From a virus, in IMG/VR virus record IMGVR_UViG_3300027777_000023, positions 1 through 64,000 of that record: a stretch of 64,000 nt of DNA; one strand, given 5' to 3'. The stretch's first letter is position 1. Each line of letters starts with the position of its first letter. Position numbers and translations under genes: made by a program. The notes beneath the pieces are model-generated. The model had not been told where the DNA came from and made no database searches. It saw only the letters and a program-made list of their open reading frames with translations. Shown here piece by piece: positions 31,899 to 33,168 of this stretch.

Positions 31899-32312
31899 GG
31901 GCCCGTACTGGTTTCGACTGAGAGTTGGAACTATAGACTGCACGTCGAGGAAGCCTGGTTGGCCTCGTTAAAACACCTAGGCAAAGCTAGTCGTCAATAA
32001 CATTGACTTCGCCCCTTCGGTTGAAGAAGCTGATGCAGTCCTCGCCACCTTCGGGTACGCGGACGCTGATGCGATCCTCGCTGCCTAAGGAGTGCCTGGA
32101 ATTGATTGTCTGCTATTTTCCAGGGTAACACGCAGCAGACTGGTTTGTGGGAGTATTGAATCCTACTCCACATAACGAGATAATGGATAATCGAGAAGTC
32201 GTAGCCTGCTTGTTGGCGCCGTCTTCTCTAAATAAAAATAACATAGCTAAACGTGTAGAGGTTTATAGTGAAGGCGTTCAGGACAGGGGTTCAACTCCCC
32301 TCGGGTCCACCA
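31899..32312 (+). ncRNA. ssrA: tmRNA (414 nt), tag (A)VNNIDFAPSVEEADAVLATFGYADADAILAA
   Basis: 5' GGGCCCGTACTGGTTTCGAC; 3' T-arm GGTTCAACTCC and CGGGTCC-A-CCA; G3:U70 pair; pk1 followed by UAGUC, resume codon at 31993, TAA at 32086-32088. Confidence 0.95.
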
Positions 32313-32317
32313 CTTTT

Positions 32318-32585
32318 AGGGGTGAAGCTTAATGGTATAAGCAGGCGACTCATAAAAATTGTGCATTATAACGAGAAATCATATAATGAATGATGTCAAA
32401 TTCGGTGAAACCTAAAACAGAAATGTTAAGGCAACGCCGAGCGAAGCCTCGAAAGAGGAACGTGTAGAGACTTGACGGCATCCTCCTAAGGCGCAAGCTA
32501 AGGAGAAGACAAAGTCCAGGGAGTGAGGAAACTCACACAAACCTAAATCGCTCGACAGTGGGTTCGATCCCCATCACCCCTACCA
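32318..32585 (+). tRNA. trnI-CAU: tRNA(CAU), most likely Ile2; exons 32318-32353 and 32546-32585
   Basis: Joined exons give a 76-nt cloverleaf with encoded CCA; anticodon arm GGCGA-CTCATAA-TCGCT matches E. coli tRNA-Ile2 as I recall it; G3-C70 argues against Met. Confidence 0.9.
32354..32545 (+). mobile_element. Group I intron, Azoarcus (IC3) type, 192 nt, terminal A
   Basis: P1 CAU/GUG with U.G pair; P3 GATGTC/GGCATC; P4 TTCGGT/GCCGAG; P7 GAGACTT/AAGTCC; P8; P9 GTGAG-GAAA-CTCAC; ends ACACAAACCTA. Confidence 0.93.
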
Positions 32586-33097
32586 TTTATCTCGCCTAAC
32601 GTGAGCAGATTGTGGTCAAATTCCCAATGACAGTTAGGACACAGGAATAGTATGTTTTCCCTGGCGTTAACTGTCTTTAGTTTGGTTTTTTTGGGAAAAG
32701 AAGAAATAGGGCGGATATGACAAATCTCGATATGTTTGTTGTAGCCGCACCGCTGGCACAAAGGATTGGTCTTCTCTGCTTTATATAGGCTATTGGCATG
32801 ACCTCGAATTTGATCATAGTGGTTCGCTCCTTTTCTTGCCGCGATTTCTTCTATGGTTGCTTCATTTCTATCTTTACCTTGTAGATGCTTTTTGTGTGCG
32901 ATACAGGCATCGCAAAAGACATTAAGTCTACCGTATTTGTTCGGGTACAAGATAATTTCACAACCTTTACAAATCTTAGACCGAGTTGACCGTCTTTTTG
33001 GTTTAATTGTATTGTTGTGTCTAGCGGCACAGCGCCTACTACAAAACTTTTTTTGATCTCTGGTCTTTAACTTTGTGGTGCAGGTGATGCAATTCAT
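32543..33097 (-). CDS. Free-standing HNH endonuclease with Zn-binding motifs
   Basis: 'CITC...FCSRRC', 'CKGC...CDAC', 'CQRC...EICHIRP...NARENILFLCPNCHWEFD'. Confidence 0.9.
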   Translation of the reverse strand: MNCITCTTKLKTRDQKKFCSRRCAARHNNTIKPKRRSTRSKICKGCEIILYPNKYGRLNVFCDACIAHKKHLQGKDRNEATIEEIAARKGANHYDQIRGHANSLYKAEKTNPLCQRCGYNKHIEICHIRPISSFPKKTKLKTVNARENILFLCPNCHWEFDHNLLTLGEINGRGDGDRTHCRAI

Positions 33098-33126
33098 ATA
33101 ATTATTTATTATTTGGGTTAGGGTTG

Positions 33127-33168
33127 CCCCAACTACTTCACTATATTTGTGAGGTAGTTGGGGTTTTT
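33127..33168 (+). terminator. Intrinsic terminator (+ strand)
   Basis: CCCCAACTACTTCAC / GTGAGGTAGTTGGGG stem followed by TTTTT. Confidence 0.8.

Follow-up and report, generated by a model that had tools for sequence, protein, structure and literature searches.

A group I intron ending in A splits a phage tRNA(CAU) gene and shares its terminal base with the stop codon of an antisense HNH gene

The window analysed here is the first 64 kb (64,000 nucleotides) of a 189.6-kb IMG/VR phage record. It carries a phage tmRNA gene on the plus strand (31899-32312), which was recognised by ARAGORN as well as by Rfam (RF00023, 156 bits), and a tRNA(CAU) gene (32318-32585, plus strand) that starts 5 nt past the CCA of the tmRNA. 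The tRNA is probably co-transcribed with the upstream tmRNA. It is interrupted between positions 36 and 37 by a 192-nt group I intron of the IC3 (Azoarcus) type (32354-32545, plus strand). Exon 1 (32318-32353) holds tRNA positions 1-36 and ends in the anticodon CAU; exon 2 (32546-32585) holds positions 37-76 including CCA. Both exons were delimited with ARAGORN on the spliced sequence, and exon 2 also by comparison with E. coli ileX, which corrected the end of the tRNA as first noted to 32585. ARAGORN missed the split tRNA, even when its intron option was included. A gene for an HNH endonuclease of 184 amino acids lies on the minus strand (32543-33097). It was identified from the list of open reading frames, from a match to Pfam HNH_2 (PF13391; 33.7 bits versus a cut-off of 21, E = 3.3e-8) and from its dN and pS against a homologous locus (L287). 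Further downstream, the sequence contains a hairpin that resembles a terminator (33126-33164, plus strand; stem of 16 bp, T run), which would end the plus-strand RNA operon only past the antisense HNH gene. The tag encoded by the tmRNA is long, with 31 residues in the window and about 30-33 in related phages.

The intron was assigned by pair counts and by Rfam Intron_gpI (RF00028), which matched 32329-32538 with 68.7 bits at a cut-off of 50, the second-best score among 11 relatives (range 50.6-74.9). P1 to P10 are intact, and GAAA loops close P2, P5, P6 and P9. The helices and loops are therefore as the original prediction had them, but its claim that the receptors are likewise intact needs correction at the P8 receptor, which reads UAAGG instead of the canonical UAUGG. 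In P1, C-A-U (32351-53) pairs with G-U-G (32361-63), and the U.G wobble of this helix (U32353.G32361) marks the 5' splice site. At the other end, AGG (32518-32520) and CCU (32542-32544) form P9.0, a helix that stops one base short of 32545, so that its 3' strand immediately precedes omega, the terminal base of the intron. P9.0 covaries in relatives (AAG/CTT, AGA/TCT and a G-C to A-U change in L290), and for this reason the register of the intron is not a guess. In P10, A37 and A38 of the tRNA pair with U32360 and U32359. Excision of exactly 32354-32545 yields a 76-nt tRNA(CAU) that ARAGORN accepts with a score of 107.9. P1, P9.0, P10 and the accepted spliced tRNA thus represent four independent lines that fix the boundaries. 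No alternative omega-G was found, as there is no G between the P9 loop (32528) and G32550 of the anticodon stem; hence no other register yields both an omega-G and an anticodon loop of 7 nt. The Rfam score and the four boundary lines bear out the prediction of a group I intron that ends in A within a phage tRNA, and P9.0, P10 and the 7-nt anticodon loop confirm the proposed 3' splice site after 32545. The terminal T-A had been described as unusual. This is correct for omega A, but U32544 is an ordinary partner within P9.0. A single unusual base is left, and the difference comes down to one G-to-A change. The length of less than 200 nt, also regarded as special at first, is ordinary because introns of 190, 191, 194, 195 and 198 nt are common among the phage relatives.

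Omega-G is near-universal in group I introns and is regarded as essential for the second step of splicing. In the Tetrahymena intron, exchange of omega-G for A is said to impair exon ligation strongly unless the binding pocket is altered too, as Price and Cech in 1988, Michel in 1989 and Been and Perrotta in 1991 reportedly found. The core of the window intron contains the P3-P9 helices, the P7 G-C pair and the bulged A. Its P7 is built from GAGACU (32467-32472), placed by alignments with omega-G relatives, and AGUCC (32513-32517), placed by pair counts. The pair G32469-C32516, which by homology with the Azoarcus numbering we take to be the G-binding pair, is the same as in the omega-G relatives. 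P7 as a whole is identical to theirs and does not vary among four omega-A copies. Compared with these relatives, we found no clade-specific retuning changes in P7, J6/7 or J8/7. As the G-binding pair and its surroundings are unchanged, nothing visibly compensates for the A at omega.

To place this base among its relatives, we scanned viral, metagenome and bacterial contigs for homologous introns with sequence patterns. The alignment column of 32545 holds an invariant G in 72-73 homologous introns from phages and betaproteobacteria. The window intron has A at this position and so do copies from three further datasets, which stem from different samples and divergent phages: L009 (IMG/VR 3300009181; same contig as L016), L287 (JGI 3300014819) and L290-292 (three Logan assemblies). 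There are three distinct omega-A sequences in all. The scan of viral contigs for further omega-A copies returned L009 only, and among GenBank phages the matches were confined to short pieces of the intron core. In bacterial genomes the pattern matched 15 times with a base other than G. By our own calculation about 17 such matches are expected by chance (18-base pattern, 596 Gb); 13 were attributed to chance and two represent decayed intron copies on contigs of betaproteobacterial MAGs (L244 and L250), with A or U at omega. These two deviate at 40 (L244) and 14 (L250) conserved columns. The window intron was compared at 102 conserved columns and deviates only at omega and at 32504, the latter being one half of a P8 pair that is flipped and still intact. 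The MAG with the decayed copy L244 also holds an intact copy of the intron (L279).

In a maximum-likelihood tree of 69 introns, calculated with the three omega columns left out, the omega-A introns form a single clade (support 91/96), so that one change is enough, and the window intron branches within a set of betaproteobacterial and phage IC3 introns. The omega-A introns have in common derived A-U and U-A pairs in P3 and P8, respectively, which are rare elsewhere. Given that homology is secure from score and tree while the omega-G hallmark of group I introns is replaced by A at 32545, we file the intron as a variant rather than as a standard IC3 member. We then analysed 79 pairs of the tRNA stems and of P1-P10 in four omega-A copies and found standard pairs in all 316 of 316 pair cells, with the U32353.G32361 wobble invariant across the four. 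Both partners had changed in 12 pairs, of which seven belong to the intron: P2 contributes three, and P5, P6, P9.0 and P9 contribute one each. In 500 shuffles this level was never attained, and slid controls gave 0-2. If A arose twice, part of the compensatory changes could be older than the A.

Comparison of the window with L287 revealed introns that are 95.9% identical next to HNH genes that are 79% identical (pS 0.69, which is saturated; dN 0.08) and tmRNAs that can be aligned in part only, with 69% identity. The conservation begins and ends at the limits of the tRNA gene, and divergence resumes at both ends. The RNA thus bears the signature of purifying selection while carrying omega A, and substitution rates likewise indicate that the HNH gene is under purifying selection. 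The pair of window and L009 was dropped as a selection test: six of its nine differences cluster at the edge of the shared block and the two copies are thus too recent.

The last 13-14 codons of the HNH gene are antisense to tRNA exon 2, and its TAG stop codon is the complement of 32543-32545 (omega-2 to omega). Omega A and the preceding U therefore supply the first two letters of a stop codon on the opposite strand, and a G at omega would abolish this stop. With a sense codon in its place the reading frame becomes 15 codons longer and runs into the intron. The stop lies on omega in all four omega-A copies. It reads TAA in L290, where the third stop letter covaries with its P9.0 partner, and TAG in the other three (window, L009 and L287). 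The L290 protein is 60% identical to that of the window and its reading frame likewise ends exactly on omega. Homologues of the HNH protein end near query residue 165-170, which places the tail outside the domain.

Relatives of the HNH protein (53-67% identity) are all encoded by genes that overlap a tRNA(CAU) gene in tail-to-tail orientation. These tRNA genes are mostly intronless, and two of them are interrupted at position 33/34 by a different intron whose last base is G. The constant unit is thus the tRNA together with the HNH gene, and the intron is optional. Throughout this family (L288-L304, homologues P0003-P0012) the final codons are tRNA antisense; the stops of the relatives fall in the T loop, the anticodon loop, the D arm or 9 codons into another intron. 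This second intron type, inserted at tRNA(CAU) position 33/34 and ending in G, was seen in L288 (3000-3330), L303 and L304, and it is the HNH reading frame of L288 that enters this intron by 9 codons. In L300 and L301, the same cassette as in the loci with the 33/34 intron is present in intronless form.

The window and L009 are 98.8% identical over a block spanning 32282-33112 and 77-80% identical in the flanks. This difference, together with the lack of the cassette in most related phages, shows that the cassette has spread between genomes. The original prediction was silent on this mobile cassette and on the antisense HNH gene that ends on omega. In most related phages the tmRNA is followed directly by a similar terminator hairpin without a tRNA, and one related phage has an intronless tRNA(CAU) at this place; L198 and L295 are candidate intronless tRNA(CAU) alleles. 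Since most relatives have the tmRNA alone, the tRNA is by the measure of gene content dispensable in this phage group. What looks like a recombination scar was seen just upstream of the cassette tRNA in L296-L298, where two complete tRNA(CAU) genes flank a third that is truncated to its 5' half.

We wondered which tRNA is encoded by the two exons. Its anticodon arm (positions 26-43) equals that of E. coli ileX at every position, unlike metT, and AUA makes up 33% of the Ile codons of the phage, a usage that fits its other tRNAs, for ACA and AGA. The acceptor stem contains G4-C69 and G5-C68. In E. coli the acceptor determinants of TilS are C4-G69 and C5-G68, and the rules of the host may differ. 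The gene probably encodes tRNA-Ile2, an identity that had been predicted and is plausible from anticodon arm and codon usage. The body of the tRNA has A8, U13 and U21, its relatives U8, C13 and A21, and the ARAGORN score is 108 versus 117-125 in the relatives. U8 and A21 are near-invariant in tRNAs; with U21 in place of A21, A14 could pair with U21. At positions 13-22-46, U-A-A replaces C-G-G in coordinated fashion, which we take to be a maintained-looking tertiary triple. The unusual bases of the tRNA body lie at 32325, 32330, 32338-32339 and 32555 of the window. tRNAs with A8 were also found beside HNH relatives in L293, L296 and L299. In L290, the omega-A intron resides in a fully canonical tRNA within a tRNA array.

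Most likely, the intron represents a genuine inherited IC3 variant that forms a small clade, each copy being located in a cassette of a tRNA and an overlapping tail-to-tail HNH gene. From the observed anatomy, conservation, compensation and stop overlap we infer, with rather more confidence than doubt, that it is a conserved omega-A intron that still splices, with exon ligation that is probably slow. The first step would be ordinary: because the P7 pair and its neighbours match those of the omega-G relatives, a free G should bind the unchanged G-C pocket as usual and attack after U36 in P1. The second step would still join the exons although the omega base fits the pocket poorly, with the 3' splice site presumably clamped between the fully paired 3-bp P9.0 and, on its exon side, P10 together with the 5-bp anticodon stem. 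The exons would probably be ligated more slowly than in omega-G relatives. This reading draws support from the recurrence of A in four datasets, the clade, the compensatory pairs, the 96% identity of the intron beside saturated sites, the near-complete match at conserved columns, the canonical tRNA of L290, the AUA usage of the phage and the precedent of a mitochondrial intron discussed below. It is weakened by the unchanged G pocket, the reported effect of omega A in Tetrahymena, the dispensable tRNA, the mobile cassette, the number of three sequences and the unusual tRNA of the window. The A may persist because it is tolerated or because it is favoured as supplier of the HNH stop.

What other explanations could account for the A? 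An error of assembly or sequencing, or a very recent private mutation, has the rarity of omega A as its one argument and is so improbable as to be negligible, because the identical base occurs in four independent datasets from divergent phages. The recurrence of A in L009, L287 and L290-292 excludes a sequencing error, and the collection of homologues thereby refutes the base error considered in the original prediction, as close relatives have A and not G. The same prediction had raised a dead copy, which is unlikely in view of the near-complete match at conserved columns, with omega and a compensated P8 pair as the two deviations among 102, and of the compensatory evolution within the omega-A clade. 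Its remaining options were a natural omega-A ribozyme and a slow or conditional splicing switch; a natural, possibly slow omega-A intron is favoured by the outcome for error and dead copy. A more specific version of failure is that exon ligation alone is dead: the RNA would undergo the first step only, without giving mature tRNA, and the gene would ride on a selfish HNH cassette in phages for which the tRNA is dispensable. The unchanged G pocket suits this scenario, as do the pseudogene-like state of both bacterial non-G copies and the A8 and low ARAGORN score of the window tRNA. A crippled tRNA could travel with a selfish element, as the cassette is mobile (nearly identical in window and L009 between divergent flanks) and most related phages do without the tRNA. 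Decay is expected under such conditions, yet each of the four copies has kept every helix, seven pairs of the intron show compensatory changes, the RNA remained 96% identical beside saturated synonymous sites and the exchange of C-G-G for U-A-A at tRNA positions 13-22-46 resembles a maintained triple. We consider the loss of exon ligation unlikely.

A further explanation addresses why the A persists and can be compatible with an intron that still splices. The A might be kept mainly as part of the HNH stop on the other strand, with the ribozyme bearing a tolerated cost. Both sublineages, the one with TAG and the one with TAA, have their stop precisely at omega-2 to omega, and the change in its third letter is matched by one in the P9.0 partner. 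Without the stop, the frame of a gene under purifying selection would continue for another 15 codons within the intron, adding to a tail that beyond query residue 165-170 is already outside the domain. On the other hand, shared ancestry alone accounts for the same position in both sublineages, and the relatives get by with tails and stop positions that differ widely, so a stop exactly at omega is not obviously needed. We regard this explanation as possible but doubtful. It is equally tentative to propose an Azoarcus-like clade that has no need for omega-G despite a standard pocket, in which the HNH stop overprints the terminal nucleotide, a protein-coding constraint has reshaped the substrate of the ribozyme, and the clamp of P9.0, P10 and anticodon stem may be the adaptation.

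The intron resembles the Azoarcus-type IC3 introns of bacterial tRNA-Ile(CAU) in its insertion site at 36/37, the CAU/GUG pairing of P1, the core, the GAAA loops, a similar size and a 3' tail of the form ...CACAAACC-N-omega. In contrast to these introns, it has A at omega and a phage host, its omega-1 base is paired, which gives a P9.0 of 3 bp, and exon 2 is overlapped by an antisense HNH gene that ends on omega. Engineered Tetrahymena introns with omega A, reportedly described by Been and Perrotta in 1991, are said to need a change of the G-C pocket to A-U. The A at omega is common to both, but the pocket of the window intron stays G-C. A natural precedent is the ND5-717 group I intron of hexacoral mitochondria, which ends in A and is excised in vivo with correct ligation of the exons at reduced efficiency (PMC6545197). 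Both are natural introns that end in A and have a conserved compact core. Unlike the window intron, ND5-717 interrupts a protein-coding gene of the mitochondrion, has a giant size with genes located within P8 and is partly removed by back-splicing, and the two are unrelated in sequence and host. In collaborative homing, an intron without a reading frame is associated with a neighbouring free-standing endonuclease, as described for phage psbA and DNA polymerase genes (PMC3984707). The arrangement in the window differs from these cases, as a tRNA gene takes the place of the target, the endonuclease gene, on the other strand, shares part of its sequence with the exon and the constant element is the tRNA-HNH pair and not the intron.

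Apart from the ND5-717 paper and a 2014 review, our search of the literature on omega-A mutants and on phage tRNA introns yielded little, and ND5-717, a giant mitochondrial intron, was the only natural exception to omega-G in it. The exception described here measures 192 nt, is related to the minimal ribozyme that is understood best and has close omega-G sisters as controls. Exon ligation without omega-G in a normal G pocket thus becomes a simple bench question. In addition, a single nucleotide serves two genes on opposite strands, as the terminal base of a ribozyme and as part of a stop codon. All phage introns known at the time of the 2014 review were located in protein-coding genes (PMC3984707), and phage tRNA genes with group I introns are added to this picture, which had none.

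Further such tRNA genes were seen among the phage contigs. IC3 introns of 190-240 nt occur at position 36/37 of phage tRNAs with the anticodons CAU, Asn GUU and Thr UGU (L002-L010, L061-L071), and the intron-bearing tRNA of L070 is probably Arg UCU. On a 188-kb phage contig (L063, 5670-6564), a tRNA with an omega-G intron is followed by a gene for an HNH protein of 192 amino acids (34% identical); the two genes are arranged tail-to-tail without overlap, and the 5' part of the tRNA and L1 appear rearranged compared with L067. In L013 (4200-5430) and L015, the 3' half of the intron alone matches and a reading frame of 344 amino acids ends just upstream, a locus that may represent an intron with a large insertion.
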